A stretch of DNA of 64,000 nt from an uncultured Verrucomicrobiota bacterium (GTDB lineage: Bacteria; Verrucomicrobiota; Verrucomicrobiia; Limisphaerales; J093), in assembly GCA_964535555.1 (NCBI GenBank), contig CAZHUS010000006.1, positions 9,458-73,457 of the forward strand, given 5' to 3'. Of this stretch, positions 34,884 to 64,000 are shown one piece after another. Position 1 is the first letter of the stretch. Each line of letters begins with the position of its first letter. The notes under the pieces were generated by a model. The model was given only the letters and a program-made list of their open reading frames with translations. It was not told the DNA's origin and did not search any database. The translations under genes were made by a program, and so were the position numbers.

Positions 34884-35770
34884 AGATCTGCATCGCATCG
34901 TCGCGTTGGCCCGTTGCGGGTGAGCCCGGTCCGCTTGCTCACGGCGCGGAAGTTGTCGCGCGGGGGACACCCGCGTGCCGGAATCCCGTGCTGGCGTCGG
35001 GTGCAGGCGGCAGCACGCGGGCGACCGCCGCCTTCACCATGGTGGAGATCGCGATCAGCATTGCGATCGTCGCCTTTGCCCTGGTCGCGATCATCGGCGT
35101 CCTGCCGACGGGCTTCGACGTTCAGCGCCAGAACCGCGAGAACACGATCATCAACCAGGAGGGGAACCTCTGGATGGAAGCGTTGCGCGGGGGGGCGTGG
35201 GGCATGGATTACCTGACCAACCACGTGGATGTGATCAACATCCCGGGCATTCCCGTCCCCGGTCAACAGCCGCCCCGTGCGTTCGGGACGACCAACGGCT
35301 TTCGGAACGGAAGGGACATCGTCGGCCTCCTCACCCAGCCAGTGGCGATCGACGGACGGAGGATCTACGAACGGCCTGTCACTGCCTTTGTGCGCGCCAT
35401 CACCGGGTCGGCCGGAGAAAAGTCAGCCAAGAACGACTTCGCGTTCACCTATCGCATGACGACCGAGCTGCGACCCTTCACCTCGATTGCGCCCGCACAG
35501 ACCAATTGGACCGAGCCGGGGATAACCCCCTACGAGCAACACGTCCGCTCCAACTTGTGGATAAAGTCCCGCGCGATGCAGGCCACCACGTACGAGTTGA
35601 GCCTCGCCCTCGAGTGGCCTGTCTACCTGATGAACAACCAGACCCGGATCGGGAACAACCGCAAGCTGTTCCGTACCCTCGTGAGCGGGAGTCTGGCTTC
35701 CACCAACGATCATCGCCTGGGCGTGCTTCACTGGCTGCAGCCTCTCGGCGGCCACGCCTTCCAGCCATGA
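34880..35770 (+). CDS. GspI-like minor pseudopilin (up to 296 aa)
   Basis: AAFTMVEIAISIAIVAFALVAIIGVLP. ATG 34880 forms an ATGA overlap with the upstream stop. An in-frame GTG 15 codons before the motif is an alternative start. Confidence 0.6.
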   Translation: MKICIASSRWPVAGEPGPLAHGAEVVARGTPACRNPVLASGAGGSTRATAAFTMVEIAISIAIVAFALVAIIGVLPTGFDVQRQNRENTIINQEGNLWMEALRGGAWGMDYLTNHVDVINIPGIPVPGQQPPRAFGTTNGFRNGRDIVGLLTQPVAIDGRRIYERPVTAFVRAITGSAGEKSAKNDFAFTYRMTTELRPFTSIAPAQTNWTEPGITPYEQHVRSNLWIKSRAMQATTYELSLALEWPVYLMNNQTRIGNNRKLFRTLVSGSLASTNDHRLGVLHWLQPLGGHAFQP

Positions 35771-36909: not shown

Positions 36910-39900
36910 AGTTCCAGGCACGCGATTCCTTCTGTGAACTGCCAGCAGGTGGGGCGGGCACTCTGTTGCCCGCCGAATTGGGCGCGCCGAGGGCTTCGCG
37001 ACCCACTTTGGACGGCCGGGGCATGGCCCCGCTGCGCCCCGGTCTGCGCGGCGTCCCGACGTTCCATGAACCTGCCCAGGAGCGCGGACTTCAGTCCGCA
37101 GGAAGCCATGCCGGCGCAGGGAGGTTCCTGCGGGCTGAAGCCCGCGCTCCTCACAGGGTCGGGTTCGCTCCGCCGCTCCGCGGGGATCCGACCGCGTCCG
37201 GGGAGCGCGGGGTGGTTCTGGTCATCACGTTGGTGATGCTCTCGGTGGTTACTTTCATGGCGATCACCTTCCTCGCCGTCAGCCGCCGCGAACGCGCGGC
37301 GGTCACGGTGGTCGAGGACCAGAGCCGGGCCCGCGCCATGGCGGAGGCTGCGGTGGCTCGCAGCCAGGCGGAGATCGTCTCCCGGGTGATCGCGTCGAGC
37401 AACCTGCTCGACTACAGCTTCATCGTCTCCACCAATTTCATCAGCCCTTACGGCTTCAACGCCGGGCTGCCGCAGGTCCTGCCGAACCCCACGAACGTCA
37501 ATTACGAGCGCATCCTCGGCGGAGGGCCGATGGCGGCAAACGACAACAACTGGCTCCGGAACATCGCCAACCTGCAGTACGACCCGCGACCGCCGGTCTT
37601 CATCGCGATGACCAATGACAACCGGGTGCCTCTGGACTTCCGGTTCTATCTCGACCTGAACCGCAACGGCCGGTTCGAGTCCAATGGCCCGCTCCCGGAA
37701 TTGTCCGCCGACGGTCGTTGGCTGAACACGAACGGGTTGATCTGGCGGCCGGGCGAGTTTGTGCTCAGCAACTTCTTCGTGGGGGACCCGGAGTGGATCG
37801 GGGTGTTGCAGCAGCCGGGTTACCCGCATTCACCCACGAACCGGTTCATCGGCCGGATGGCTTTCCTGCTGCAGCCGGCAGGCAAGAGCCTTGATCTCAA
37901 TTTCATGGGCAACCACACCTTGCGGCTGAACGACACCCGGCTGCAACTGGACGGCTTCTATCGGAACCAGGGCGTGGGCTCCTGGGAGTTGAACCTCGCG
38001 GCCTTGCTGCGCGACCTGAACACGAACGTCACGGACTTCTACAACTATCGTGGCCTGGCTGGCCCGGCGACCGGCACCGCCGCGGAAGATTCGCTCTCGA
38101 TTCTGCGCTACCGATACGGCTCCGACCTCCAGAACCTCCTGCCGTTCGCCTTGCTTTATGGACCGCAGGCCGCCAGTTCGTTCCAGGTCGACCTGATCGA
38201 TGGCTACAGCGACGGACCCGCCTTCACCGCCACGAACGTGCTCGGGCTTGCGACCGACGACGATCTTACGCCGCAGAACAAGCCGTGGGCCGGCAGTGAC
38301 AACGCCCGCTCGTACGTGGATCTGCAAGAGCTGTTCGACACGAACAAGGTGATCCGCTCGGCCAGCGGTGGCGGCCCGGTGTGGCCGGCGCGGATGCTGC
38401 TCGCCCAGAACAGCCTCTCTTCCTACAACCGGTACACGTACTACCGGATGCTCGCCCAGGTCGGGGTTGACTCCGCCCCCGGCGAGAACGGCAAGGTCAA
38501 CCTCAACTACAACAACGTCCCTCCGTACGCCTCGACGAACTTCGTCCCGTGGACCCCGACCGAGTTCTTCGAGGCGGCCGCGAACCGGCTCCTGGTCGCC
38601 GCCCGGCGTACCAACGTCGTGCGGGCTGGAAACAATCTGTACACGAACTTCTATGTCGGCAGCACCCTGGTCCGGCCGGGCATGTCGCTGACGAACATCC
38701 TGCTGTACCCCTACAACGAGTATTCCAGCGAAGTGCATCGGCTGTTCCAGCTTGCCGTCAACCTTTACGACGCCAGCACCAACCGCCAGGACACGGCGTA
38801 TCCGCACCTCCCCACCGTCTTCCGGCCGCTGTTCGGGACCGACGACCAGGCCGTTTTCATCAAGGGCTACGAGCTGGTTACCAACGCCACCGAGATCCTT
38901 ACCGAGCGGATTCTCAGCCTGAACGTGCCGGCCCACCGGGACGTGCTGCGCAGCACGCCGAGGGCGATCGTGTACGACGTTCCCTTTATCATCGGAGCCA
39001 AGAAGGGACTGCCGAACTTCAACGAATTCTCGCTCCGCAACGTCGCCCAGCTCACGCGCAAGCTCGAGGTGCGCAAGCGCACGCCTGCCGATGTGATGCC
39101 CTACCAGACCAACCTGATGTACCTGGTGACGCTCACGAACCAGTTCGGCGTCGAGCTCTGGAATTCCTATACGAACGACTTCCCGCGCCCGTTGCGGGTC
39201 CATGTCGTGGGCAGCTTCTCCCTCGCCTTGATCGACGGGCTTCGTACCAACATCCCGCTTGCCTGGACGAACCTCCCCTACAGCACCAATTTCGGCGTCA
39301 ACACCTGGGTCTCGAATCGCTTTGTGCTCCCGGTCGCCCGCCCGGTCAGCCTCGCCAACTCGATGGCGTACTCGCAGGTGCCGCTCGGTCTCACACCCAC
39401 GACCGTGAACACGCCGTTCGTCACGGGCCGCGGTTACTACCTCCCGGAGTGGACCCTCCAGGGAACCAACAGCTTCATTTGCGCCATCCTCGACGAGCGG
39501 ACCGGCAACCTCGTGGACTTCGTCAACATCGGCAACATGCGGTCGGTCATGAACATCTCCCGCGAACTCGGTGGCCGGCGGCAGTCCGCGACTCCGGGAC
39601 TCGCGCCGCAGCTGGCCAATGTTTGGGACACGAACCGCGTCGGTGGCGTCAACAGTCTCAATGTCCCCATGGTCGGCATCGAGAACCAGATGCAGATCGC
39701 ACTCGGCAATACGACCGTGAGCGACGCCGAGTGGCGCAGTTACAGTCAGATGAGCGCCGAGGGCCAGGACAAGCAGAAGGGCATTGATCGCTTCCGGGTC
39801 TTCAACGGCCTCACGCCGCTGTACTTCACGAGCGATCTCGAGCGGCGCCAGCTCGCGAACGAACTGGCGGGACGTACCGCGGTCCAGGCCCCCTTCTCGC

Positions 39901-40976
39901 CGACTCAGAAGCTGTACCAGGACACCGCCTGGCAGGCGAACGACCCGTTGGTGCACTACCTCGTGCAGGACCTTCTCGATCCCACCAACCGGCCGGACGA
40001 TCCCAACCGCACCAACACCGTCCGCTTCGCCATCCCGCCCACCGCGGTGCTGACCAATTCGAACCTCGGCGCCGTCAACGAGCGGTACGCCCCGTGGGGC
40101 GGCAATCCGAATCTCACTCCGGGTGTCCGGGCCTACGACAACCGCGTCAAAGACCCGTACATCAGCCGCCCGGACGACTGGCAGTTCCCGACCAACAAGT
40201 TCCCCAGTCTTGGCTGGATCGGGCGGGTGCACCGCGGCACGCCCTGGCAGACCGTGTACCTGAAGTCGGGTGTCATCTCGGCGCGCGAATGGCTGGGCTG
40301 GTCCGGCAGTCCGGGCACGCATCCCACCAACGACTGGCCCCTCATCGAATCGTTCACGGTCGCGGCCAACGAAAACGCTGCCCGCGGCCTGCTCTCGGTG
40401 AACCAGACCAACCTCGCCGCGTGGTCCGCGGTGCTCAGCGGCGTGTCGGTATTGAGCAATCTGACCCCGGCCAACATTGCCCTGGGCGGGCTGCAGCCGG
40501 AATTCCAGGAAGTCATTATCCAGCCGGACGGTCCCGCCGGGCTGACGCATTACCCGCAGCTCCGCCGCATCGTGGACGGCATCAACCGCACGCGCCTGTC
40601 GGAAGTGACGAACAACCAACAGTCCGTGCCCGTCTTCAACCGGTTGGGGCGGATCCTGGCTACGCCCGAACTGACCGTCGCTTCGCCCTTCCTGAACCCG
40701 AGCAATGTGGTGAACGACATGGTCCTCGAGCGCATTCCCCAACAGATTCTCTCGCTCATTCGCGAGGATGAACCGCGCTTCGTCGTCTACGCCTTCGGGC
40801 AGTCGCTTCGGGAGGCGCCCAATTCGCTCTTCCTCCAGGCCGGCAGCTTCAACCGGCTCTGCACCAACTACCAGATCACGGCGGAATACGCCGCCAAGGC
40901 GGTCATTCGGATCGAGGGCTCTCCGCTCAGTCCGCGCGCCGTCATCGAGAGCTATCGAGAACTGCCTGCGCACTAG
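36906..40976 (+). CDS. Giant GspK/PilX-like pseudopilin-family protein (up to 1356 aa)
   Basis: ATGA overlap with the upstream gene. Hydrophobic anchor GVVLVITLVMLSVVTFMAITFLAVSRRE followed by AMAEAAVARSQAEI (PilX_N/GspK-like). The body is rich in N, Y, F, T and W, typical of secreted proteins. The first ~100 codons are doubtful (alternative starts ATG 37023, GTG 37212). Confidence 0.6.
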   Translation: MKFQARDSFCELPAGGAGTLLPAELGAPRASRPTLDGRGMAPLRPGLRGVPTFHEPAQERGLQSAGSHAGAGRFLRAEARAPHRVGFAPPLRGDPTASGERGVVLVITLVMLSVVTFMAITFLAVSRRERAAVTVVEDQSRARAMAEAAVARSQAEIVSRVIASSNLLDYSFIVSTNFISPYGFNAGLPQVLPNPTNVNYERILGGGPMAANDNNWLRNIANLQYDPRPPVFIAMTNDNRVPLDFRFYLDLNRNGRFESNGPLPELSADGRWLNTNGLIWRPGEFVLSNFFVGDPEWIGVLQQPGYPHSPTNRFIGRMAFLLQPAGKSLDLNFMGNHTLRLNDTRLQLDGFYRNQGVGSWELNLAALLRDLNTNVTDFYNYRGLAGPATGTAAEDSLSILRYRYGSDLQNLLPFALLYGPQAASSFQVDLIDGYSDGPAFTATNVLGLATDDDLTPQNKPWAGSDNARSYVDLQELFDTNKVIRSASGGGPVWPARMLLAQNSLSSYNRYTYYRMLAQVGVDSAPGENGKVNLNYNNVPPYASTNFVPWTPTEFFEAAANRLLVAARRTNVVRAGNNLYTNFYVGSTLVRPGMSLTNILLYPYNEYSSEVHRLFQLAVNLYDASTNRQDTAYPHLPTVFRPLFGTDDQAVFIKGYELVTNATEILTERILSLNVPAHRDVLRSTPRAIVYDVPFIIGAKKGLPNFNEFSLRNVAQLTRKLEVRKRTPADVMPYQTNLMYLVTLTNQFGVELWNSYTNDFPRPLRVHVVGSFSLALIDGLRTNIPLAWTNLPYSTNFGVNTWVSNRFVLPVARPVSLANSMAYSQVPLGLTPTTVNTPFVTGRGYYLPEWTLQGTNSFICAILDERTGNLVDFVNIGNMRSVMNISRELGGRRQSATPGLAPQLANVWDTNRVGGVNSLNVPMVGIENQMQIALGNTTVSDAEWRSYSQMSAEGQDKQKGIDRFRVFNGLTPLYFTSDLERRQLANELAGRTAVQAPFSPTQKLYQDTAWQANDPLVHYLVQDLLDPTNRPDDPNRTNTVRFAIPPTAVLTNSNLGAVNERYAPWGGNPNLTPGVRAYDNRVKDPYISRPDDWQFPTNKFPSLGWIGRVHRGTPWQTVYLKSGVISAREWLGWSGSPGTHPTNDWPLIESFTVAANENAARGLLSVNQTNLAAWSAVLSGVSVLSNLTPANIALGGLQPEFQEVIIQPDGPAGLTHYPQLRRIVDGINRTRLSEVTNNQQSVPVFNRLGRILATPELTVASPFLNPSNVVNDMVLERIPQQILSLIREDEPRFVVYAFGQSLREAPNSLFLQAGSFNRLCTNYQITAEYAAKAVIRIEGSPLSPRAVIESYRELPAH
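36936..36978 (+). repeat. GC-rich hairpin repeat, copy 2
   Basis: GAACTGCCAGCAGGTGGGGCGGGCACTCTGTTGCCCGCCGA. The two differences from copy 1 fall in the 5' flank and the loop, not in the stem. Confidence 0.8.
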
Positions 40977-40990
40977 CGCTTCCCCGGCGT

Positions 40991-43900
40991 ATGAGATCCA
41001 GATTTTGGTCCGTCATCAGTGTCCTGGCGTTCGTCGCCGCAATCCTGTGCTGGCTCGAGGGCGACCGGCGTCGCGCGGCCAACGCGCCGCCCGTGGCGCC
41101 TGCATCGGCTGCGCCCGCCCCGGCCACCAATGAGCCCGGGGCCGGCGCCGCGGCCCCGCAGGGCGTTCGGCTCCTCAGCAATCCCGGCATCCTGATGCGC
41201 CAGCCTGCGGTGGTCACCGCCACTTCGGGAGGGCCTGCCCCCGCCGCCTCTCCGGACGCCCTCCTGCCGATGCGTCTGCGCAACGTCGATGCGCCCCTCG
41301 GTGAGTTGAGCCGCCGGGACACCGCCGTGTTGCTGCGCAATGCCCTCATCGACACGGCAGGCCAGGAACCGTTGGACGTTCCCGCCGTGCTTCGATCCAC
41401 GGACGCGCCCGGCGCGTACATCGTCCAGGCCCGTGGCAACACCACCGACGGCCTTCGGGAGCGGATTCGCGCCGCCGGCGGGCGCCTGGTTTCGTACGTT
41501 CCCAACAATGCCTACCTGGTTCGCCTGTCGCCCGCGGGCGCAGCCGAGCTCCAGGATATCGCCCAGGCGGTGTTGCCCTTTGACCCTTACTTCAAGCTCG
41601 AGCCCGGTCTGCTGAAACCCGCCCTCGAGGGAACGCCTCCCGATGAAGGCGCGCTCCTGTTGATCACCGGGTACGCCGAAGATCGTGATGCGACCCTGGA
41701 ATCGCTTCAAGGGCTCGGCGCTGCGGTGCTGGTCGAAGGCCGCGGCAATGTCGGCTTTGGGCCCGAACCCCAGTTCCTGGTCGACCCGCGAGGGGCCTCT
41801 TTCGCCGCGTTGGCCGGACTGGCCGGCGTGCAGCTGATTGAAGCGTCCCACGAGCGGTCGTTGCTCGTGGACCTCACGCGCGAACGGTTGGGCGTGGCGC
41901 TGGACACCGTCACCCTTACCAACCACCTCGGCCTCACCGGCAGCAACGTGTGGGTGAATGTCAACGACACGGGCATTTGGGGCGACCACCCCGACCTCGA
42001 GGGGCGCGTCTTTGCCCATGGCACGAATCTCCTGGAGGACCCCTACGGCCACGGCACTCACGTCGCCGGGATTATTGCCAGCACCGGCGCCAACGGCCCC
42101 ACCGGCACCAACGTCCCGCCGGGTTCGCTGACGAACGCCACCTTCCGCGGCTTTGCCACCAACGCCAGCCTGTTCGTCCTGCCGGTGGATCCCGTGACCG
42201 GGCCGCTGGTGTCCGACACCTTCCTTCAGGAGGTCGCCGCCGCCACGAACTACAACACCCTGGAACGGACCAACGCCCTGATCTCGAACAACAGCTGGGG
42301 ATACGCGCGGGCCTTCGAATACAACTCCGCCGCCGCCAGCTACGACGCGGCGGTGCGCGACTCCCTTCCCGACCAGACCGGGTCGCAGCCCGTGATGTAT
42401 GTCTTTGCCGCGGGGAACGCGGGATTCGGCAACAACGTGGGCAGCGGTGGCTTTCCCGGCAGCATCACTTCGCCCGGCACGGCGAAGAACGTGATCACGG
42501 TCGGTGCTGTGGAGAATCTCCGCGAGATCACGCTGGAGGTGGTGAGCACCAACCAGGTCACCAACATCGTGGATGGCGAATTCGTGGTCACCAACGTGGT
42601 CGAGACGAACCAGATCCCGATCGAGATCTCCGACAGCAATGACGAGATCGCCGCTTTCTCCAGCCGTGGCAACGTCGGGTTGGGTGTCGAAGGAGACCGG
42701 GGGCGGTTCAAGCCGGACCTGGTGGCCCCGGGTGTCTTCATCGCCTCGACGCGCGCGACCAACTGGACCGTCGATTTCATCCGCACCAACTCGACCGTCT
42801 TCACCTATCCGGCCCAGGTGGTGCAGCCCGAGGATTGGAACAACTACAGCATCCAGGTTCCCGCGCTGGCGAAGCGCTTGACGATCTCCACGGTTCCCGA
42901 GCCGGCTTCCCCCGACCCCTTCCCCGCACTCCGCATTTACACGCTCTACGGCGCGCCGCCCACTCCGGCCGATCTTCAGGGTACGGGTGAGGTGGTGATC
43001 GACGACCCGCAGGAAGGCCCCTGGTATTATGCCGTCGAGAATCCCACGCAGACGCCGGTCACGTTCACGCTTCGAGTGAGGATCGACGTGCAGATCGACT
43101 CCGACGATTACCTGGACCTGATCACGGACATCAACGAGCCGCTCGAGCCGTATTACCGTTTCGACACCGGCACCAGCGCTTCCGCCGCCGCCGTTTCCGG
43201 GATGCTGGCCTTGATGCAGGAGTTCTTCGAGCGCCAGATCGAGCAGCCGTACAGCCCGGCCTTGATGAAGGCCCTGCTCATCAACGGGGCGCGTTCGGTC
43301 AGCCCGCTCTACAACCTGGAAGTCCGCTCCCAGGTGAATTACCAGGGCTGGGGCCTGCCCCTGTTCACGAACGTCCTGCCCGCCACGATCACCAACAACC
43401 TCGAGAAACTGGAGGAATGGCCGCTGCGATGGGTGGACCAGCATCCCACCAATGCCCTCGCCACCGGCGAGACCCATGCTTACGACCTCGAGGTTCCCAC
43501 CAACGCCATCCTTTCGGATCTGCGCGTAACGCTCGTTTGGACCGACCCGCCCGGCAACCCGGCGGCTTCGATCAAGCTGGTCAACGACCTCGACTTGGTG
43601 GTGTCGAACAAGACCACGGGAACCTGGTACTTCGGCAACGACATCCCCGCCTCCAGCGACTACAACCGGCCCAACACCACCAATGAAATCGTCGGGCTCC
43701 CGGACAACATCAACAACGTCGAAAACGTCTTCCTTCGGCAGCCCATCGACACCAACTACACCGTCCTTGTCAGCGCCCGCCGCGTCAATGTGAACGCCGT
43801 CACGGCGCACACCAACGGCATCGTCCAGGATTACGCGCTCGTCATGTCGGTGGGTGGGACCAACGCGCTGAAGCTTACGCCTCAGACCCCGGTCGCCACC

Positions 43901-46900
43901 AACTTCACCGAGGCGACCATCATCACCAACGGGGTGCCCATCCTGTACCAGCGCGCCGGCGCGCACTCGCCCCTGATTGGCAAACCGGAGTTCGGGACGA
44001 CCAACCAGTGGCATTTCTACGTCTTCACCAACCGCTACGACACGAACCTCACGGGAGGTGAAACCAACTTCGGCAAGTACGTCGCCTTCCTGACCTTCAC
44101 CCCGCCCAACCTCTCCGTGCCCCGCACGGCGGAGGAAGGCGACATCGACATGTACGTCACCCGCACGGGGCCGGGCGCGGGCGCCAACCCCGGCGCGTCG
44201 AACCTGACCCGTCTGGACCCGGCGCAGATGGCCGCCGCGGCGACGTCCCTGACACGCTTGGGCACGGAGCTCGTGGCCTTTGAGAACGCCGCGATCGGCG
44301 AGGTGTTCTACATCGGCATCAAGTCGGAAGATCAGATGTCCGCGGAGTACGGCATCATCGGGCTGTCCAGCGACGAACCCTTCGGGAGCCTCCTGCCGGA
44401 TGGCAGCTACGAGATCTACGGTCGCCCGCTGCCGCGGGACATACCCGACGGCAGCCCCAACGCCCCGGGAGCCGCGCTCGTCTTCGGGGTGGGGGTGTAT
44501 CCCATGGTGGTTGGCCGCGCGATCGTTTATAACGCGTTCACGCATGAGGAAGCGGGCGACTTGCTGGGCAACCTGAGCCACTCCAGCCGCTTCGTCGTTC
44601 TGAACAACCACAGCCCCGCGCCCGAGGACAACGACGGGTATGTGGCCGCCATCTACGACGACACCGGGAACGCGATCGAGCCGTTGGCCCAGCCCAGCGA
44701 CGGCCCCGGGAGCCTGGTCGATTTTATCGGCAGCCAGGGAACCGGGGTCTGGCAGTTCACGATGATCGACAACGGCCTCGCGCACACCGGCCGGGTCGAG
44801 GAACTCACGATCCGCCTCTTTCCGGCACCCGATCTCATGGCGGGGAGCTTCGTCACGCTGCAGCCCAACCAGTTCAACATCTTCTACGTCGACGTGCCTG
44901 CAGACGCCACGCTGCTGCGCATCCTGCTCTCACAGATGACGCTGCCCATCGACGTCTTTGCCCGGTACGAGGCGCCGCCGACGTTGACGGACTTCGACAA
45001 GTCCGCGCGCATTCCGCCGCCGAGTGGAGAGATGACGGTCGGGCAAACGGACATTCCGCCCCTGCGTCCGGGACGCTACTTCGTCGGGGTTTTCAATCCG
45101 AACGGCGTGGCGACCACCTTCTACATCCGGGCGGCCATCGAGCGCGCCCTGGCTGGTCCGTTGCGCCGCGATCTGGTGGGCACCAACGCCGTGCCGCTCC
45201 AGGACGATTTGCGGATGTTCTTCACCAACTATGTCGACAACGCCCTCGCCGTGGCGGAGGTCATGGTGGGCATCCGGGCCAGCCACCCCCGGCTTTCCGA
45301 TCTCGCGTTCAGTCTCATCAGCCCCCAGGGAACACGCACCATCCTGGCGGAGAACCGCGGCGCCACCAACCGCACCACCTTTGGCTACGACACGGTGAAC
45401 ACGAACTTCCACCACGTCGCGCTCACCTACAGCACCAATACCGGACTCGCCATTCTCTACCTGGACGGAGCCGAGCAGGGGCGCCGCGTGATTGGCCCGG
45501 TCACGCCGGACACGCGTCAGAGCCTCCACCTGGGCCGGCAGCCCGCGTCGAACTTCGGCTTCTCCGGCCAGTTCCTGGGGCAACTGGACGAGGTCGATCT
45601 GTACGGTCGAGCCCTGCAGGCCTCGGAGATCCTGGGAATCTACCGCTATGGCGGCGCCGGGAAGCCTACGAATGAACTGGTCAGCCGTTGGAGCTTCGAC
45701 GGAAACGGCGCCGACTCCATGGGGAACAATCCCGCCTCCGTCCTCGGGCCCACCTTTGTGCCCGGCAGGTTCCGTGGCGGGCTGGACTTCCGCGCCGAGG
45801 GCGATCACGTGCTGGTCACGAACTCCTCCGGGCTCGATGTTGGTCTTCGGAGCGGCTTCACCCTGGACGCCTGGGTGAATCCGTTCGACCTCAGCACCAA
45901 TCGCGTCCTGGCCGCCTGGAGCAACGGCACCAACACCCTGGGCGTCGAATTCGGCATCCGCGCCGGCTCGCTCACGAACCTCGCCCCCGGAGTGCTTTAT
46001 GCGAATCTGCGCGACCGATCCGGATCCAACCACGTGGTGGAAGCAGCCACCCAGGGTCTGATTCGGACCAACGGGTTTTTCACGAACGTCGTCTATGTCA
46101 GTTTCACGGACGACACCAACCTGGCGTTGGTCCCGATCAAGTTTGCCGAGCCCGACACGGCTCCCATCGCGCAATCCACCAACCGGCTCGTGAGCGGCTT
46201 CGAGGCGCCGACCTCAAGCCGCGTTACCACGCTGAACGTCGATGACGTCTTCGATGGCTGGACGGTGGATGCGGGCCGGCCTTCGGTGCTGACCGGGCCT
46301 CTGGCCCACACCGGCACGAACCTGCTGGTCCTCCGTGATGGCTCCATCTACGCCTCGGTGCCCACCGTGCCCGATCGCGCGTACCGGCTCCAATTCGCCC
46401 ATCGGCGCGAGCCGCTGCCCGACGATGCGGTGAGTTGGTGGGATGGCCAGGACAGCCTGACTGACATCCTCAGCACCAACGACGCGCTGGCTTTCGATGA
46501 CCTCGCTTTCGCGGCGGGGAAGGTGGGACGCAGCTTCGCCCTCACCAACACCGCCCGGTTGGAGGTGCCGCACGCCGACGCGCTTAGTTTGACCAACGAA
46601 CTCAGCATCGAATTCTGGTACCTGGCCCGTAATTACGGTCCGGCCGGTACGAATCTGATCTACAAGGCCGAACCGGCGGAGCCGACGCTTTTGAACTACT
46701 TCGTGAATCTGTCCTCCGCGGGCGTCGACGTCGGCTTCAACGATCCGGACCAGCCCGGCGTGGGATCCGATCTGGCCAACGGCGTCGAGGGCATTCGCTA
46801 CAATCCGCTGCCGGCCCTCAACGTCTTCCATCACCTCGCGGCAACGTTCCGGCAGGTGACTCCAACCCAGGTCGAGTTGACGCTGTACCTGGACGGCGTC

Positions 46901-49408
46901 GCGCAGCGGGCCAAGGTGCTCAACGGCCTCCTGGTGAACACGGCCAGTGCGGGGCCGCTGGTCATCGGCCGTGGGGACTTCGACGGACTGCTGGATGAGA
47001 TCACCGTTTACAGCCGGGCCCTGAGGGCCGACGAGGTCCAGGAGATCTTCTGGATGGACGCGCTGGGTAAGGCCCGTCCGCCCGCCCTGCCGGCCACGTT
47101 GGTGCGCGTCGATCGCGCGGCGAACACCGTGTTCGCCTCCGACCCTCTCTGGTTGACCAACGGTCTCACGTTCCTCGCCACCCGCACCAACACCCTGGTC
47201 GAGATTGTCGGCGTACAGCCGGGGGTGATGCTGGATTCGGTCGAAGTGCGCGAGCTCCCGGCTACCACCTTCTTCCCGGAGGAACCCCTGAAGCCGTTCG
47301 TGGGCGAGAACGCCCTGGGCGACTGGAAGCTGGAGGTGGTCGACCGACGGGTTGGCGCCACGAATGACCTGTTGGACGCCTTCATTCGCTGGCAGTTGCA
47401 GCTCACCTTTGCGCCGATCGTCGTCCCCGCGGTCACCCTTACAAACGGGGTGATCTACACGAACACACTCCCTGCCGGACAGGCCCGCTACTTCATCGTG
47501 GACGTGCCGCTCGAGGCCCGACGCGCCACCAACACCCTGGGGGCGACGGTCCCGCTTGACCTCTGGTTCAATCATGCCGGCATCCCGACCTACGGCGCTT
47601 CGGGCACCGATTACCACGTCCTGACGAACCTGTCCTCCGGCATCGCGGTGGTCCTTACCAACGAAATGCAGGTGCGGGACACCAACCACACGTTGGTGGC
47701 TTCCGCCCCCGCGCCGGTCCTCGAGCCGGGGCAGCGATACTATCTCGCCCTGACCAACCAATCGGCGACATCGACGCCGTTCTCCATCCAGGTCGATTTT
47801 GACCAGGTGACCGGGGACATCGCCGGCGTCCGGAATCTCGGTTGGGGGCAGGTGATTCGCACCAACATCGCCGCGGGAACGGCGATGCAGTTTTTCCGCT
47901 ACAACGTCACCAGCAATGCGATCGGGGCTTCGTTCCAGGTCACGCCCACGGACGGGGATGTCCACCTCTACCTGCGCAAAGGGACGACCTCGCGGAACCC
48001 GCTGCCCACCCCGCAAACGTTCGACTACGCCAGCGAGAACGTGGGCACCAATCCCGAGACGATTCTCGTCACCCAGGATTCCGTCCCCGTTCCGCTGAGC
48101 AGTGGACCCTGGTACCTGGGCGTCCTCAACGTCGATACGCACCCGGTGAACTACTCGGTTCGGGTCCTCGAATATACCAACGTCACCGACCAGGTGATTG
48201 ACCTGCAGCCGGACGTGACGCAGACCGCGACGGTGAACCCGGCCGGACTCAGCCGGCTGTACTTCCGGTTCACCGCCACCGGGTCGCCGGCGGCAGTTCA
48301 GTTTGACCTTGCGGGTCTCACCGGCAACGCGGAGCTCTACGTCAAGCAGGGATCCAACCCGTCGCCTTTTGACTATGAGTTCATGGATGCCGCGGCACCG
48401 GGCCTGCCCGCCCGTCTGGTCATCCGGACCTCGGTCAGCGGCGCCAACCTGAACGGCGAGTGGTACTTGCAGGTCTACAACCTCGAAGCGGGCCCGATCT
48501 CGTTCGGCATCACGGCGTCCTATCCACCACCAGGACCCGTCATCTGGAATCTGCGGGATTCCATTCCGTTCCAGGCGACGCTGGGAGCCGACCTTCCCGG
48601 TCAACAACCGGTTCCGCAGTATTTCTCGTTCATCGTGCCGGAAGGTGCCACGAACGTTCTGTTCCAGCTCACGCCCTTGAACGGCAATGTGGACATGCTG
48701 GTGCGCCGGGGGGCTTTGCCCGATCTGGCCAACTTCGACTACTTCAGCTTCAACGGCGGCACGGCGGTGGAGGCGATTGTGGTCGATGCCGAGTCGCTTC
48801 CCGCGCCCTTGGCTCCGGGAGAGTGGTTTGTGGCCGTGTACAGCGGCGCCACCACCTCCACCACCTACGAGATGCTGGCCAGGAGCCTGCCCCCGGGGCT
48901 CAGCGGTGAGGTCACCATCGATCCCCACGTGGAGATCGGCGTCAACGGCGTCACGATCCGCTGGACGGCGGCGCCCAACCTCAACTTCCAGGTTCAATAC
49001 GCCACCCGCATCGCCGCCGACGGCAGCATTCCATGGATCACCATTCCGGGACTGGTGACCTCGTCCACCACGGCCTACGCGTTTACGGACGACGGCTCTC
49101 AGACGGGGGGGCTGGGCGCTTTCAAGTTCTATCGGGTGGTCCTGGTTTCGTCGGGGGGCGGCGGCGTCCTCCTGGATCCGCACGTGCAATTCGATGGTGC
49201 CGTTGCGGTGCTCCGATGGAGTGCCGATCCTGATCTGAACTTCCAGGTGGAGTACGCCACCAGCTTCCGGGCGAACGGCAGCCCGGCCTGGGTGGCCGTG
49301 CCGGGCTCCGTCACTTCGACGACGGGGAACTACGAGTTCCGGGATGACGGGTCGCTGACGGGCGGCGCTGCCGCGATGAAACTCTACCGGGTGCGGCAGC
49401 TTCCGTAA
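40991..49408 (+). CDS. Giant (2805 aa) secreted subtilisin-family (S8) peptidase with P-domains, LamG domains and PPC-like repeats
   Basis: Signal anchor FWSVISVLAFVAAILCW. I9-like propeptide (AYIVQARG...NAYLVRL). Catalytic residues D326 (NDTG), H354 (HGTHVAG), NNSWG and S729 (GTSASAAAVSG). P-domain-like HPRLSDLAFSLISPQGT. LamG signatures LDEVDLYGRAL and LDEITVYSRAL. PPC-like GDVHLYLRKG, GNAELYVKQG and GNVDMLVRRG. Two C-terminal FYR modules. Confidence 0.9.
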   Translation: MRSRFWSVISVLAFVAAILCWLEGDRRRAANAPPVAPASAAPAPATNEPGAGAAAPQGVRLLSNPGILMRQPAVVTATSGGPAPAASPDALLPMRLRNVDAPLGELSRRDTAVLLRNALIDTAGQEPLDVPAVLRSTDAPGAYIVQARGNTTDGLRERIRAAGGRLVSYVPNNAYLVRLSPAGAAELQDIAQAVLPFDPYFKLEPGLLKPALEGTPPDEGALLLITGYAEDRDATLESLQGLGAAVLVEGRGNVGFGPEPQFLVDPRGASFAALAGLAGVQLIEASHERSLLVDLTRERLGVALDTVTLTNHLGLTGSNVWVNVNDTGIWGDHPDLEGRVFAHGTNLLEDPYGHGTHVAGIIASTGANGPTGTNVPPGSLTNATFRGFATNASLFVLPVDPVTGPLVSDTFLQEVAAATNYNTLERTNALISNNSWGYARAFEYNSAAASYDAAVRDSLPDQTGSQPVMYVFAAGNAGFGNNVGSGGFPGSITSPGTAKNVITVGAVENLREITLEVVSTNQVTNIVDGEFVVTNVVETNQIPIEISDSNDEIAAFSSRGNVGLGVEGDRGRFKPDLVAPGVFIASTRATNWTVDFIRTNSTVFTYPAQVVQPEDWNNYSIQVPALAKRLTISTVPEPASPDPFPALRIYTLYGAPPTPADLQGTGEVVIDDPQEGPWYYAVENPTQTPVTFTLRVRIDVQIDSDDYLDLITDINEPLEPYYRFDTGTSASAAAVSGMLALMQEFFERQIEQPYSPALMKALLINGARSVSPLYNLEVRSQVNYQGWGLPLFTNVLPATITNNLEKLEEWPLRWVDQHPTNALATGETHAYDLEVPTNAILSDLRVTLVWTDPPGNPAASIKLVNDLDLVVSNKTTGTWYFGNDIPASSDYNRPNTTNEIVGLPDNINNVENVFLRQPIDTNYTVLVSARRVNVNAVTAHTNGIVQDYALVMSVGGTNALKLTPQTPVATNFTEATIITNGVPILYQRAGAHSPLIGKPEFGTTNQWHFYVFTNRYDTNLTGGETNFGKYVAFLTFTPPNLSVPRTAEEGDIDMYVTRTGPGAGANPGASNLTRLDPAQMAAAATSLTRLGTELVAFENAAIGEVFYIGIKSEDQMSAEYGIIGLSSDEPFGSLLPDGSYEIYGRPLPRDIPDGSPNAPGAALVFGVGVYPMVVGRAIVYNAFTHEEAGDLLGNLSHSSRFVVLNNHSPAPEDNDGYVAAIYDDTGNAIEPLAQPSDGPGSLVDFIGSQGTGVWQFTMIDNGLAHTGRVEELTIRLFPAPDLMAGSFVTLQPNQFNIFYVDVPADATLLRILLSQMTLPIDVFARYEAPPTLTDFDKSARIPPPSGEMTVGQTDIPPLRPGRYFVGVFNPNGVATTFYIRAAIERALAGPLRRDLVGTNAVPLQDDLRMFFTNYVDNALAVAEVMVGIRASHPRLSDLAFSLISPQGTRTILAENRGATNRTTFGYDTVNTNFHHVALTYSTNTGLAILYLDGAEQGRRVIGPVTPDTRQSLHLGRQPASNFGFSGQFLGQLDEVDLYGRALQASEILGIYRYGGAGKPTNELVSRWSFDGNGADSMGNNPASVLGPTFVPGRFRGGLDFRAEGDHVLVTNSSGLDVGLRSGFTLDAWVNPFDLSTNRVLAAWSNGTNTLGVEFGIRAGSLTNLAPGVLYANLRDRSGSNHVVEAATQGLIRTNGFFTNVVYVSFTDDTNLALVPIKFAEPDTAPIAQSTNRLVSGFEAPTSSRVTTLNVDDVFDGWTVDAGRPSVLTGPLAHTGTNLLVLRDGSIYASVPTVPDRAYRLQFAHRREPLPDDAVSWWDGQDSLTDILSTNDALAFDDLAFAAGKVGRSFALTNTARLEVPHADALSLTNELSIEFWYLARNYGPAGTNLIYKAEPAEPTLLNYFVNLSSAGVDVGFNDPDQPGVGSDLANGVEGIRYNPLPALNVFHHLAATFRQVTPTQVELTLYLDGVAQRAKVLNGLLVNTASAGPLVIGRGDFDGLLDEITVYSRALRADEVQEIFWMDALGKARPPALPATLVRVDRAANTVFASDPLWLTNGLTFLATRTNTLVEIVGVQPGVMLDSVEVRELPATTFFPEEPLKPFVGENALGDWKLEVVDRRVGATNDLLDAFIRWQLQLTFAPIVVPAVTLTNGVIYTNTLPAGQARYFIVDVPLEARRATNTLGATVPLDLWFNHAGIPTYGASGTDYHVLTNLSSGIAVVLTNEMQVRDTNHTLVASAPAPVLEPGQRYYLALTNQSATSTPFSIQVDFDQVTGDIAGVRNLGWGQVIRTNIAAGTAMQFFRYNVTSNAIGASFQVTPTDGDVHLYLRKGTTSRNPLPTPQTFDYASENVGTNPETILVTQDSVPVPLSSGPWYLGVLNVDTHPVNYSVRVLEYTNVTDQVIDLQPDVTQTATVNPAGLSRLYFRFTATGSPAAVQFDLAGLTGNAELYVKQGSNPSPFDYEFMDAAAPGLPARLVIRTSVSGANLNGEWYLQVYNLEAGPISFGITASYPPPGPVIWNLRDSIPFQATLGADLPGQQPVPQYFSFIVPEGATNVLFQLTPLNGNVDMLVRRGALPDLANFDYFSFNGGTAVEAIVVDAESLPAPLAPGEWFVAVYSGATTSTTYEMLARSLPPGLSGEVTIDPHVEIGVNGVTIRWTAAPNLNFQVQYATRIAADGSIPWITIPGLVTSSTTAYAFTDDGSQTGGLGAFKFYRVVLVSSGGGGVLLDPHVQFDGAVAVLRWSADPDLNFQVEYATSFRANGSPAWVAVPGSVTSTTGNYEFRDDGSLTGGAAAMKLYRVRQLP

Positions 49409-60559: not shown

Positions 60560-62317
60560 ATGATCACGAAACTCAGCATCAAGAACTTCAAGCGCCTGAA
60601 ATCGGCTGAGATTGACCTTGGCGGCCATGTCGTGTTCATCGGTCCCAACAACTCCGGCAAGTCCAGCGCCTTGCAGGCGCTCACCCTCTGGGATGCCGCC
60701 TGGCGGCGCTGGTCAGAAAGGCGTGAAAAGAAGGACGCGGAAGGCAAGCTCCGGCGACAGCCTGCGAAAGTCCGCACCGGCGTCGTACTCAACCGGCGCG
60801 AGCTTCACGCGATTCCGTTGCCTTCGGCGAAGCTCCTTTGGACCGATCTTCACACCCATCAGACGAAGGGCCGGGGCGGTGAGAAGGAAACTGAGTACGT
60901 CTACATGCAAATCACGGTCGAGGGGATCGATCGCGACCGGGTGTGGTCCTGCGGCATGGAGTTCTACTACGCGAACGAAGAGTCCTTTTATTGCCGCCTG
61001 GCCTCAGGCGGTGAGGGACAGCTCCCTGATGCCTTGCTCCGTCACCCCGTGGTGTTTTTACCCCCCATGTCCGGATTGGCGGACCGGGAGTTTCGCAAGG
61101 AGCGCGGAGAGATCAGCATGTTGATTGGCCAGGGGCAGACTGCCCAAGTGCTTCGCAACCTGTGCTGGCAGTTGTTCTCCCGCGAGGACAAAAGGCCTTG
61201 GGGCCAGCTGGTGGAACATATCCAAAGGCTCTTTTCCGTCACGCTCACGCCGCCGCAATACTACCCGGAAAACAGCAGCCTGACGCTCGCGTATCAGGAG
61301 GGGGACGGAATCGAACTGGATATTTCTTCCTCGGGTCGCGGTTGCCAGCAGGTCACGCTCTTGCTGGCCTTCCTGCTCGCCAATCCCGGAGCCATCCTGC
61401 TCCTGGACGAACCCGATGCCCATCTCGAGATCCTCCGCCAACGCGATGTTTACACTCTGCTCACCGAAGTCGCCGCGGCGCAGGGCTCCCAGATTATCGC
61501 CGCCAGCCACTCCGCCACGGTCATGCAGGAGGCGGGCGAAAAGGACGTGTTGGTGGCTTTCCTCGGAGCCCCGCATCGGGTGGACACGCGCTCCCGCCAG
61601 AACCAGATCAAGAAAGCACTCGAGTCCGTCCCCATGTCGGATTTCTATCAGGCGGAGCAAATGGGCTGGACCCTTTATCTCGAGGGATCCACCGATCTGG
61701 CCATCCTCAGAAAACTGGCGATCAGGACAAACCACGGCGCCCGACGCCATCTTGAAGGCCGCGTGCCCGCCGTCTATCTCGGCAGCAACAAACCGGGCGA
61801 CGCCCGCAATCATTTCGATGCGATGCGCGAGGCCAGTTCGTCAGTGCTCGGCTTTGCCCTCTATGACCGGCTGCCCAACCCGGACACCCAACTCGGGACA
61901 CTGCAGAACCTGGTCGAGCGGATGTGGAAACGCCGCGAGATCGAGAATTATCTCGTCACGCCAGCCAGTCTGCTTGCGTACGTCCAGGCCGATTTGCGGG
62001 TCGGGGACTTGTTCGACAGCGCCGAGGGCCGGCGACGCGCCGAGATCATGCGAGCCTGCATCAACGAGCTTGAGCAGTCGTTGAAGACCCAGCGTCGCCC
62101 CAGTCCGTGGAGCGATGAGGTGAAGGTCACTGACGAGTTTCTTGATCCGCTTTTTGCGAACTTCTACGACCGCCTCGGCATCCCGCAGCAGACGTTCAAG
62201 AAGGACTACCATGGGCTCGCCGATGCCATTCCCGCCGGGGAGATTCCGCCGGAAGTGACTGCGGTTCTCGACGACATCCTGGCGGTCGCCGACAAAGCCC
62301 GTGGGGTCAAACATTGA
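60560..62317 (+). CDS. ABC/SMC-like AAA ATPase fused to a Toprim/DUF4435-like C-terminal region (OLD/PARIS-like)
   Basis: MITKLSIKNFKRL...FIGPNNSGKSS (Walker A), SSSGRG (signature-like), ILLLDEPDAHLE (Walker B) and IIAASHS (H-loop). The C-terminal half has LYLEGSTDLAIL and KRREIENYL. The ATPase call is confident; the nuclease-domain call is tentative. Confidence 0.8.
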   Translation: MITKLSIKNFKRLKSAEIDLGGHVVFIGPNNSGKSSALQALTLWDAAWRRWSERREKKDAEGKLRRQPAKVRTGVVLNRRELHAIPLPSAKLLWTDLHTHQTKGRGGEKETEYVYMQITVEGIDRDRVWSCGMEFYYANEESFYCRLASGGEGQLPDALLRHPVVFLPPMSGLADREFRKERGEISMLIGQGQTAQVLRNLCWQLFSREDKRPWGQLVEHIQRLFSVTLTPPQYYPENSSLTLAYQEGDGIELDISSSGRGCQQVTLLLAFLLANPGAILLLDEPDAHLEILRQRDVYTLLTEVAAAQGSQIIAASHSATVMQEAGEKDVLVAFLGAPHRVDTRSRQNQIKKALESVPMSDFYQAEQMGWTLYLEGSTDLAILRKLAIRTNHGARRHLEGRVPAVYLGSNKPGDARNHFDAMREASSSVLGFALYDRLPNPDTQLGTLQNLVERMWKRREIENYLVTPASLLAYVQADLRVGDLFDSAEGRRRAEIMRACINELEQSLKTQRRPSPWSDEVKVTDEFLDPLFANFYDRLGIPQQTFKKDYHGLADAIPAGEIPPEVTAVLDDILAVADKARGVKH

Positions 62318-62485: not shown

Positions 62486-64000
62486 ATGAGATCGCTCCCC
62501 CTTATCCTCGCCCTCGTTGCCGTGCCGGTCTGCAGCCTGCGGGCCGCCGACGACCTGTTGATCGCCCGTTTCGAGGAGTCCGACTACGGAGCCTGGACCT
62601 GCACCGGCGACGCATTCGGGGCCGGCCCGGCCCGGGGCACTCTTCCCGGCCAGATGACCGTCGACGGCTTCGAAGGCGCGGGGTTGGTCAACTCGTTCCA
62701 CGGGGGCGACGCGACCACCGGCAGGCTGGTCTCGCCGCCCTTCACCATCGAACGCCGTTACCTGAGCTTTTTGATTGGCGGCGGGAAGGACATCGAACGC
62801 CTCACCATGCGGTTGGTGATCGGCGGGCGAGCGGTTCGCGTCGCGACGGGGCCCAACGATCGCCCGGGCGGCAGCGAAACCCTGGCGCGCGAGTCCTGGG
62901 ACCTGGATGAGTTCCGCGGTCAGACCGCCATTCTCGAGATCGTGGACCAGGCGACGGGCGGATGGGGTCACCTCAACATCGACCACATTCTCCAGACCGA
63001 CCGCAAGCCGTCGGGGTTGCTGGCGAAGGCCCGTCGGGAGTTCAACGTCGATTCGCGTTACCTGAATCTGCCCATCCAGAACGGTGCGCCGAAGCGCCTT
63101 GTGACGGTGCTGGTGGACGGAGCGGTCGTCGTCCGGAATGAGATCGAACTGGCTCCTGCGACCCCGGATTGGTGGGCGTTCATGGACGTGAGCCCGTGGA
63201 AGGGGCGGACACTGACGCTGCAGGTGGACCGCGTTCCCGAGGGCTGGCAGGCGCTCGAGGCGATTGAAGCGGGAGACACCATCAAAGGCGGCGCCGGCAT
63301 GTACCGCGAGCCCCTGCGGGGTCAGTTTCATTTTTCAAGCCGGCGTGGGTGGAACAACGATCCCAACGGGCTGGTCTTCTATCGGGGCGAATATCACCTG
63401 TTCTACCAGCACAATCCCTACGGCTGGGGCTGGGGCAATATGCATTGGGGCCACGCCGTCAGCCGCGACCTGGTGCACTGGGAGGAAGAGGGCGACGTGC
63501 TGCTTCCCGACGATCTGGGGCCGATGTTCAGTGGGAGCGCCGTGGTGGACTGGGACAACACCAGCGGATTGGGGCGCAACGGTGAACCACCGTTGGTGCT
63601 GATCTACACGGCCGCCGGGGACCCGACCGTGCAGTGCATCGCCTCGAGCACCGACGGGCGCACCTTTTCGAAGTACCCGGGCAACCCGGTGTTGAAGCAG
63701 ATCACGTCCGGCAACCGCGACCCGAAAGTGCTATGGCACGAGCCGACCAAGCGCTGGGTGATGGTGCTCTACGTCGAGAAGCCTGCGGGGCAGCACACCA
63801 TTCACTTCTTCACCTCGCCGAACCTGCGCGACTGGACCCTGGCCAGCGTCGTCGAGGGCGACCCCGCGGGGAAGCCGTTTCTGTTCGAGTGTCCGGACTT
63901 CTTCGAGTTGCCGGTGGATGGTGAGGCCGGGAACCGGAAATGGGTGCTGACCGCGGCCAACAGCGAATACGCCGTCGGCACGTTTGACGGGACGCGGTTC
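62486..64000 (+). CDS. Secreted GH32 beta-fructosidase/levanase-family glycoside hydrolase, 3'-truncated at window edge
   Basis: Not in the ORF track because no stop falls in the window. ATG 62486 stays open for 505 codons to nt 64000. Signal peptide MRSLPLILALVAVPVCSL. GH32 catalytic motif WNNDPNGL with YHLFYQHNP, later RDPKV and FECPD. Confidence 0.85.
   Translation, partial: MRSLPLILALVAVPVCSLRAADDLLIARFEESDYGAWTCTGDAFGAGPARGTLPGQMTVDGFEGAGLVNSFHGGDATTGRLVSPPFTIERRYLSFLIGGGKDIERLTMRLVIGGRAVRVATGPNDRPGGSETLARESWDLDEFRGQTAILEIVDQATGGWGHLNIDHILQTDRKPSGLLAKARREFNVDSRYLNLPIQNGAPKRLVTVLVDGAVVVRNEIELAPATPDWWAFMDVSPWKGRTLTLQVDRVPEGWQALEAIEAGDTIKGGAGMYREPLRGQFHFSSRRGWNNDPNGLVFYRGEYHLFYQHNPYGWGWGNMHWGHAVSRDLVHWEEEGDVLLPDDLGPMFSGSAVVDWDNTSGLGRNGEPPLVLIYTAAGDPTVQCIASSTDGRTFSKYPGNPVLKQITSGNRDPKVLWHEPTKRWVMVLYVEKPAGQHTIHFFTSPNLRDWTLASVVEGDPAGKPFLFECPDFFELPVDGEAGNRKWVLTAANSEYAVGTFDGTRF

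Follow-up and report, generated by a model that had tools for sequence, protein, structure and literature searches.

A candidate anti-phage protein family combining an OLD-type ABC ATPase with a divergent Toprim-like domain in Verrucomicrobiota and other bacteria

The locus and the protein it encodes

The window analysed in this work is a stretch of 64,000 nucleotides from an uncultured Verrucomicrobiota bacterium (Limisphaerales; J093), which covers positions 9,458 to 73,457 of the forward strand of contig CAZHUS010000006.1 in the assembly GCA_964535555.1. Near the downstream end of the window, between genes for a ZIP transporter and a secreted GH32 hydrolase, lies a gene for an ATP-binding cassette (ABC) ATPase with an additional C-terminal domain. 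In a previous sequence-only reading of the window, this gene was proposed as a candidate fused PARIS-type (AriA-AriB) or OLD-like defence gene. Here, profile searches, structure prediction and comparative genomics were applied to the protein and its relatives. The gene probably represents a new, uncharacterised family within the known class of ABC-ATPase/Toprim defence proteins, and it is not a formal PARIS member.

The gene is a single intact open reading frame (ORF; 60560..62317, forward strand), which starts with ATG, encodes 585 amino acids (aa) plus a stop codon, and is the sole long ORF in its frame. The ORF and all motif strings quoted in the sequence-only reading were recovered in the window protein, which also keeps every residue that is invariant in its family. 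Its two parts, an ABC-ATPase head and a C-terminal domain composed of an alpha/beta core and a helical bundle, are listed with their motifs in Table 1.

Table 1. Features of the window protein. Conservation counts refer to 52 divergent relatives that are 34-49% identical to it.
Feature	Residues	Window position (strand)	Evidence or conservation
ABC-ATPase head, OLD-ABC / AAA_15-AAA_21 type	1-342	60560..61585 (+)	Pfam, PADLOC, Foldseek
N-terminal start string MITKLSIKNFKRL	1-13	(+)	
Walker A GPNNSGKSS (G28, G33, K34)	28-36	60641..60667 (+)	invariant, 52/52
ABC signature-like SSSGRGCQQ (G259, R260, G261)	256-264	61325..61351 (+)	G261 invariant, G259 50/52
Walker B and D-loop ILLLDEPDAHLE (D283, E284, D286)	279-290	61394..61429 (+)	E284 52/52, D283 50/52
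H-loop ASHS (H317)	315-318	61502..61513 (+)	H317 invariant, 52/52
C-terminal domain	343-585	61586..62314 (+)	always fused behind ATPase; AlphaFold2 domain model
Toprim-like alpha/beta core	~366-470	61655..61969 (+)	secondary structure, Foldseek, hhalign
Motif 1 LYLEGSTDLAIL (E375, D379)	372-383	61673..61708 (+)	E375 51/52, D379 52/52
Motif 2 ALYDRL (D436)	433-438	61856..61873 (+)	D436 50/52, directly after strand 3
Motif 3 KRREIENYL (E460, E462, N463, Y464)	457-465	61928..61954 (+)	each 50-51/52, after strand 4
C-terminal helical bundle	471-585	61970..62314 (+)	helices 484-510, 523-539, 552-556, 564-579

The ATPase head and the C-terminal domain

The assignment of the N-terminal part to the OLD and AAA_15/AAA_21 ATPases, made earlier from its first residues and motifs, was borne out by profiles, by sequence and structure matches in PDB, and by the intact motifs. 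In the whole protein, Pfam detects both ATPase families recommended for checking, AAA_21 (E-value 1.8e-19, 71.3 bits) and AAA_15 (5.9e-19, 69.4 bits). The best PADLOC matches are all defence ABC ATPases, namely NsnB (5.9e-24), AriA (8.6e-22), mad3 and AriAB (2.8e-18); the Old (1.6e-13) and GajA (1.4e-13) models also match on the ATPase part. The closest PDB sequence found by phmmer is the OLD nuclease of Thermus scotoductus (6p74, E-value 2.4e-6), and the match to AriA is weak (E-value 0.011, residues 242-347). The head carries a beta-rich Insert-1 and a helical Insert-2. The full-length AlphaFold2 (AF2) model has a mean confidence score (pLDDT) of 73, and its Foldseek matches (PtuA, GajA, retron-associated PtuA, and SMC/Rad50 heads) reach an E-value of 2.6e-8; this search is dominated by ATPase heads and was uninformative as a guide to the tail. 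Judging by its conserved motifs, the ATPase is very probably catalytically competent.

The C-terminal domain was not recognised by sequence models. Residues 325-585 alone gave zero Pfam or PADLOC matches even at E-values up to 10, with DUF4435 and the PADLOC model of AriB included, and NCBIfam likewise yielded nothing for the tail. PF14491 was matched neither by the whole protein at E <= 1 nor by the tail alone at E <= 10, and a scan of the 52 divergent relatives at E <= 1 found neither DUF4435 nor a Toprim family in any of them. Formal membership of the tail in DUF4435 or Toprim_OLD, which the sequence-only reading had recommended for checking, thus failed. When a hidden Markov model (HMM) of the domain was compared with PDB sequences at E <= 10, AriB, OLD and GajA chains were all missing from the matches; those obtained, a cullin and the N-terminal 'EIEN' helix of a Fic protein, were rejected as chance. 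The PADLOC AriAB alignment extends to residue 506 in the window protein. This match is driven by the ATPase and was not counted as evidence for a Toprim domain, because the tail alone scores nothing and a relative embedded in an Hma system aligns over its ATPase only.

The fold of the domain is more informative. A domain-only AF2 model based on 37 divergent sequences has a pLDDT of 94.3 and a predicted template modelling (TM) score (pTM) of 0.90. Its core has the order beta-alpha-beta-alpha-beta-beta, with strands at residues 370-374, 404-406, 430-435 and 451-455, and is followed by the helical bundle. In a Foldseek search of this model against 350,542 PDB chains, the top two matches are entries for AriB: 8ux9_A (E-value 0.013, probability 0.80) and 8v46_D (E-value 0.019, probability 0.72). 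The matches ranked next are ten-fold weaker and unrelated, and GajA (E-value 1.3) and the T. scotoductus OLD protein 6p74 (E-value 1.5) appear lower still and are non-significant. The structural comparison with AriA/AriB and OLD proteins suggested in the sequence-only reading therefore singles out AriB, although at marginal E-values. A Foldseek search of viral predicted structures returned nothing significant.

Seven residues of the domain (E375, D379, D436, E460, E462, N463 and Y464) are conserved in at least 96% of the 52 divergent members. Strands 1, 3 and 4 carry them at their C-terminal ends, the positions that metal ligands occupy in Toprim domains, with E375 and D379 directly following strand 1. 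In the family alignment, the five strand-end acids (E375, D379, D436, E460 and E462) are nearly invariant. Two DUF4435 profiles (A4 and A5) were built from PF14491-annotated relatives of published AriB/DUF4435 sequences. The hhalign comparisons of the family with both profiles placed the three motifs collinearly and in register over 91-99 columns, with scores of 24.6-26.6 and pairwise E-values of 0.001-0.005, and the reversed-profile controls scored 9-11 (E-values 0.4-0.8). In these alignments, E375 and D379 correspond to E37 and D41 of the DUF4435 E-G-x-x-D motif, D436 corresponds to the first Asp of 'VDHD', and the E460/E462/N463/Y464 motif corresponds to 'SIENY'.

The metal ligands of AriB are E26, D30, D88, E90 and E122 (PMC11464382). 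Via the DUF4435 alignments, whose pairwise E-values are just 0.001-0.005, we propose E375, D379 and D436 as the equivalents of E26, D30 and D88, respectively; E462 is proposed to correspond to E122 from motif order only, and the position of E90 is occupied by Leu438. The spacing within the E-x3-D motif is the same as in AriB, and E375 is separated from D436 by 61 residues, compared with 62 between E26 and D88. The sequence-only reading had associated E-G-x-x-D and I-E-N-Y strings with DUF4435-like domains. Published AriB/DUF4435 sequences contain FVFEG(V/D)DD, VD(H/Q)DY and (S/A)IEN(Y/P) (PMC9122126 supplements). In one of them FVFEGVDD is paired with SIENYI, and in another FVFEGDDD is paired with AIENPL. 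The strings named in that reading are therefore genuine signatures, and the collinear alignments agree with the association, although no profile match was obtained and the alignments are marginal.

The earlier remark that a clear DxD motif is not visible, with YDRL only, was also correct. The canonical DxD after strand 3 is absent in the window protein: D436 is followed by Arg and Leu, L438 replaces the second acid, and the next acid is D442. A D-x-x-[DE] motif is found in about half of the wider family, and 12 of the 52 members have no second acid. Residue 437, which follows the conserved Asp, is usually R, K or H, and about half of the members have D-[RKH]-h-[DE], with the acid at +3, in place of the Toprim DxD (window 61865-61885, residues 436-442). 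The subclade of the window protein is marked by a 'PNP' insertion after this Asp in the family alignments A2 and A3. Conserved patches are also found in the helical bundle, K522-x-T/S-D525-x-F-L and K547-x-D-Y-H551, and the bundle may serve in dimerisation or substrate binding. In summary of the fold and motif comparisons, the C-terminal domain is probably a divergent DUF4435-like Toprim domain; nuclease activity of the tail is plausible.

Distribution of the family and its genomic context

A phmmer search with the tail against 1.84 billion (1.84e9) representatives identified at least 598 clusters at 50% identity (E <= 1e-3). Since every full-length match (all of them 550-630 aa) carries the domain at its C-terminus, the fusion of ATPase and tail is considered obligate. 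A scan of one genome per species, which provides a lower bound of prevalence, yielded at least ~420 tblastn-confirmed matches among 185,579 species. The 80 loci listed belong to Verrucomicrobiota, Planctomycetota, Acidobacteriota, Proteobacteria, Chloroflexota, Bacteroidota, Nitrospirota, Poribacteria, Latescibacterota and others. The distribution of the family across about a dozen phyla is patchy and not universal. One ~50% identical copy was observed on a 1.0-Mb contig (L026; CAVQNT010000002.1) of a metagenome-assembled genome (MAG) labelled Candidatus Bathyarchaeota, which could reflect either a cross-domain transfer or an error of binning or labelling.

An exact-sequence search of public assemblies found no record of the window protein, and its closest named relatives come from Verrucomicrobiota MAGs. 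Among the relatives examined, the closest (71-84% identity) are solitary copies, and the housekeeping genes around them differ from one copy to the next. In six species representatives of Poribacteria (L049, L070, L079, L081, L085 and L088), the gene is found in conserved synteny, with the same conserved gene of ~350 aa located ~40 bp upstream. Stable vertical transmission within this lineage is therefore suggested, an unusual trait in a defence gene. The ratio of nonsynonymous to synonymous substitution rates (dN/dS) between the window gene and L007, its nearest relative among those with available DNA, is 0.08 over the whole gene (ATPase, 0.06; tail, 0.11); these values are approximate because dS is ~1.2, close to saturation. 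Both domains of the solitary copies are under strong purifying selection. Universal conservation as a housekeeping gene, which the sequence-only reading had named as an observation that would speak against a defence role, was not observed: the family is patchy and found repeatedly inside defence operons, though it is syntenic in Poribacteria.

For the survey of genomic context, all ORFs within 6 kb of the gene were clustered in 88 loci with no prior assumptions. Neighbours of solitary loci, defined as those with no recurrent partner found, were compared with each other and with one set of Res, Mod and Fic proteins. Apart from genes whose recurrence reflects synteny within a lineage, just two partners recur: a ResIII helicase/endonuclease, found in 11 loci at a median distance of 135 bp upstream, and an N6/N4 methyltransferase, found in 9 loci at a median distance of 31 bp downstream (2 bp in L001). 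PADLOC identifies these partners as a Type III restriction endonuclease and a Type III methyltransferase, the latter with up to 1001 bits. About one locus in six is situated inside either a Type III restriction-modification (R-M) cassette, in the order res-X-mod, or a complete Hma system, in the order hmaA-X-hmaB-hmaC. The res-X-mod cassettes number 11, and their intergenic gaps run from a few bp to ~135 bp. In four further loci, a full-length or partial HmaA adjoins the family gene. One of these, L064, has the order hmaA, family gene, hmaB (1483 bits) and hmaC (1180 bits). Because this locus holds a separate hmaC of its own, the family gene is an extra insert in a complete Hma system, and its identity with HmaC was rejected. 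Payne et al. (bioRxiv 10.1101/2024.01.29.577857) reported that a gene inserted into an Hma, BREX, DISARM or Type I R-M operon is often a defence system itself.

Three loci contain unusual arrangements. In L003 (6820-7881), a Fic-domain gene is also nested in the Type III cassette, in the order res - fic - family gene - mod, and is therefore a second embedded candidate effector in the same operon. L066 (3496-11720) contains a truncated HmaA-like helicase, a PDC-S02 PD-(D/E)xK candidate (456 bits), the family gene and only a fragment of HmaC; it is a degenerate Hma locus and resembles a defence island in decay or after recombination. On plasmid pNsp_c of Nostoc sp. ATCC 53789 (L089:3001-4878), a 625-aa 'AAA family ATPase' is encoded between pglX and pglZ of a BREX-1 system. 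This protein is a distant relative, which has the LE-x-S-D ... D ... EIENYL core in common with the family (hhalign E-value 3.8e-4), and its tail has no Pfam match.

At the window locus itself, the upstream ZIP transporter gene (PF02535) ends at 60511 and is the last of a co-directional run that also encodes a MacB-like permease, an ABC ATPase (recognised by sequence motifs), a NifX-like protein and a thioesterase. The downstream GH32 hydrolase gene starts at ~62486 and continues past the end of the window; the encoded part (62486-64000) contains a signal peptide and, before the GH32 domain, an N-terminal extension of ~280 aa for which no Pfam match was found. No Res, Mod, helicase or HNH gene is present near the family gene or elsewhere in the window, as the sequence-only reading had stated for a helicase or HNH partner. 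It had also described the gene as an isolated insertion, slightly more AT-rich than its surroundings. The base composition is as described (GC content 0.61 vs ~0.66 in the neighbours), and the isolation holds for gene content, but composition at the codon level is host-like. The GC deficit is confined to codon positions 1 and 2, and the GC content at third codon positions (GC3), 0.768, is at the level of the adjacent upstream operon (0.74-0.82) and below that of the GH32 gene (0.85). For these reasons composition is weak evidence of recent acquisition and is a poor guide to recent transfer. The gene is flanked by neither direct repeats nor mobility genes, a consensus scan of both flanks found no terminator-like site, and the compositional case for an insertion was dropped. 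Elsewhere in the window (36906-49408), two very large co-directional ORFs of 1356 and 2805 aa are preceded by an ORF with a prepilin-type N-methylation motif (34975-36909).

Relation to known defence systems and possible function

Among the known systems, PARIS is the closest by effector domain. Both combine an OLD-type ABC ATPase with a second module, and AriB is the best structural match of the family tail; the E-G-x-x-D, D and E-N-Y motifs are common to both, collinear and similarly spaced; and both are tied to restriction systems, as PARIS senses anti-restriction proteins. Single-polypeptide PARIS (fused AriAB) exists (PMC9122126); the fused Vibrio sequence given in the supplement to that paper ends before its Toprim domain and was unusable for comparison. 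The differences are that the family does not match PF14491 (0 of 52 members), that the window protein has no equivalent of AriB E90 but has an extra Glu (E460), that the window ATPase is only weakly AriA-like, and that the family was not found on phages, plasmids or phage satellites. The published detection rule for PARIS demands AAA_15 at >=32 bits or AAA_21 at >=27 bits, plus PF14491 at >=27 bits (PMC9122126). The ATPase scores of the window protein are far above these values, and the PF14491 requirement is what excludes it from formal PARIS. Of the earlier proposal of a fused PARIS-type or OLD-like gene, the ATPase stands and AriB is the best, if marginal, structural match of the tail, whereas PF14491 and a DxD Toprim were not found.

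By architecture, the nearest counterparts of the family are HEC-04 and the class 1 OLD proteins. HEC-04 joins an ABC ATPase with a Toprim domain and is embedded in Hma, and its defence activity needed both active sites (bioRxiv 10.1101/2024.01.29.577857). The order of domains in one protein is the same, and some family copies are likewise located between hma genes (L064), although the window copy is not embedded. HEC-04 is missing from the best 25 PADLOC families for both the window protein and L064, and its Toprim domain is described as OLD-like with an OLD metal site, whereas the tail of the window protein is nearest to AriB and lacks DxD. On these best 25 families, below which a weak match of the ATPase alone may lie, and on the lack of PADLOC matches to the tail, HEC-04 identity was rejected in favour of a different sequence family with the same architecture. 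The OLD proteins (P2 Old and the class 1 enzyme 6P74 of T. scotoductus) and GajA resemble the family in their N-terminal ABC ATPase, which belongs to the same clade, and in having a C-terminal alpha/beta domain of nuclease type, and class 1 OLD proteins are encoded by stand-alone genes. The window protein agrees with class 1 OLD in its ATPase and differs in its tail, where neither a DxD Toprim nor the full Toprim_OLD signature (Glu, DxD, further acids and Lys) was found. Identity with GajA was rejected, as no GajB or UvrD partner is present at the window locus; in the clustering of 88 loci, no helicase recurs beside solitary family members.

By genomic habit, the family resembles PrrC and HEC-04. 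PrrC and RloC are also ABC-ATPase and nuclease proteins inserted inside an R-M operon, and PrrC is summarised in one preprint as the classic 'guard', which fires when a phage disables the restriction enzyme (bioRxiv 10.1101/2024.01.29.577857). They differ from the family in the type of nuclease domain and in the host system (Type I R-M, vs Type III R-M, Hma and BREX for the family); homology is seen in the ATPase alone, and PrrC and RloC models are absent from the best 25 PADLOC families. Two other candidates were rejected. Menshen NsnB, the best PADLOC match, has a C-terminal DUF3696 helix, a degenerate Walker B (EN), and flanking NsnA (DUF262) and NsnC (PMC12065111); the match of the window protein is on the ATPase only, its Walker B is canonical (D283-E284), and it has neither DUF3696 nor NsnA or NsnC neighbours. 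For MAD3 of MADS, the NCBIfam model NF047739 gave 43.2 bits vs a cut-off of 420 bits.

We estimate a probability of about 0.6 that the window gene encodes a single-polypeptide anti-phage protein of the class that includes P2 Old, GajA, PARIS AriA/AriB and HEC-04. Under this proposal, the tail would be a divergent DUF4435-like Toprim domain with metal-dependent nuclease activity, and the ATPase heads would dimerise or oligomerise in an ATP-dependent manner and keep the nuclease inactive. By analogy with PARIS and PrrC, a phage cue, plausibly an anti-restriction protein or the loss of a neighbouring restriction system, would alter the state of the ATPase and license the nuclease. The nuclease may then cut nucleic acid of the host or the phage, either tRNA, as AriB does, or DNA, as GajA and OLD do, and the infection would be aborted. 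Solitary copies, including the one in the window, would act autonomously, like fused PARIS, class 1 OLD proteins and HEC-04. Back-up systems of this kind include PrrC, which is located in Type I R-M systems and activated by Stp, and PARIS, which responds to Ocr, according to two reports (PMC11464382; bioRxiv 10.1101/2024.01.29.577857). A stand-alone sensor-effector is the most likely model because HEC-04, PrrC and PARIS set the precedent.

Several observations weigh against this proposal. The tail was undetected by every Toprim or DUF4435 sequence model tried, its best Foldseek E-values are just 0.01-0.02 at a TM-score of ~0.27 with no match at E <= 1e-3, and the hhalign probabilities are just 7-23%. 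The second acid of the Toprim DxD/DxE motif is missing in the window protein and in the 12 relatives mentioned above, and catalysis is therefore only putative. As to the genomic evidence, ~80% of the loci, including the window copy, have no adjacent defence gene in the neighbour comparison; the GC3 of the window gene is host-like; the gene is syntenic within Poribacteria; and no family members were found in ~72,000 plasmids and ~50,000 phage records.

A more novel reading, which we regard as rather unlikely, is that the family is a distinct 'guard' module for immune systems composed of a helicase and a methyltransferase, such as Type III R-M, Hma and, distantly, BREX. In such a module, the AriB-like Toprim domain with a single Asp would have a different geometry of the metal site and possibly a new substrate, and the solitary copies would either keep watch on unlinked restriction systems or detect an anti-restriction factor that is broadly conserved in phages. 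If so, the family would be an analogue of PARIS and PrrC for Type III restriction that is unrecognised by current defence finders.

It is unlikely that the protein instead works in sensing or regulation, with a Toprim-like domain that lacks nuclease activity and binds nucleic acid or a partner to modulate Type III R-M or Hma. The missing DxD, the conserved basic residue after the Asp (R, K or H at 437), the marginal matches to catalytic Toprim domains and the tight operon coupling, with the end of the L001 gene 2 bp before mod, all fit such a role. However, the conservation of the five strand-end acids (at least 96%) is what a metal site, and not a binding surface, would show, and four of the five AriB acids have proposed equivalents in the same order, three by hhalign and E462 by motif order. 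A regulator would also have to find unlinked partners, or another regulatory role, for its solitary copies; most copies lack a linked partner and yet are under strong purifying selection.

A role as a chromosomal housekeeping or repair ABC ATPase like RecF, RecN or SbcC, with the R-M and Hma neighbourhoods being incidental, appears improbable. The solitary position of most loci among metabolic genes, the very high sequence conservation with low dN/dS, the synteny in six Poribacteria species, the host-like GC3, the absence from known plasmids and phages, and the SMC, Rad50 and RecN heads among the structural matches could all be explained in this way. On the other hand, few species carry the gene, and they are scattered over phyla (at least ~420 matches in 185,579 species), and close relatives (74-84% identical) are found at unrelated loci. 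A housekeeping role also fits poorly with the precise same-strand insertions inside operons, between res and mod and between hmaA and hmaB, with the nearest ATPase relatives by profile, all of which are defence ATPases, and with the lack of the coiled-coil insert typical of SMC, Rad50 and RecN.

It is very improbable that the gene is a selfish element that acts in addiction or as a toxin, of the AbiEii (type IV toxin-antitoxin) kind, and is maintained by post-segregational killing: Pfam describes AAA_21 as 'putative AbiEii toxin' and several databases so label relatives, but this label is generic for OLD-type ABC ATPases, no antitoxin-sized gene recurs alongside in the 88 loci, and no association with plasmids, phages or transposases was found.

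The architecture of the protein is unsurprising, and the moderate interest of the family lies in its size, its invisibility to the effector-domain models of the Pfam and PADLOC libraries used, its divergent active site and its embedding in Type III R-M systems. If the proposed anti-phage function is correct, the ABC-ATPase/Toprim defence class would gain a large family, with at least 598 clusters at 50% identity. This family is common in Verrucomicrobiota, Planctomycetota, Acidobacteriota, Proteobacteria, Chloroflexota and Poribacteria, and its effector domain was unmatched in the Pfam and PADLOC libraries used. In genome annotation, the labels 'AAA family ATPase' and 'AbiEii toxin' could then be replaced by 'ABC ATPase-Toprim-like defence candidate'. 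The divergent active site, with its E-x3-D, single Asp and E-x-E-N-Y elements, would be well suited to testing which Toprim residues AriB-like nucleases require. The insertion between res and mod would widen 'guilt-by-embedding' to Type III R-M, a system type that drew little notice from Payne et al., who mined Hma, BREX, DISARM and Type I R-M, and the family would be a tractable case for studying how back-up immunity is wired to restriction.

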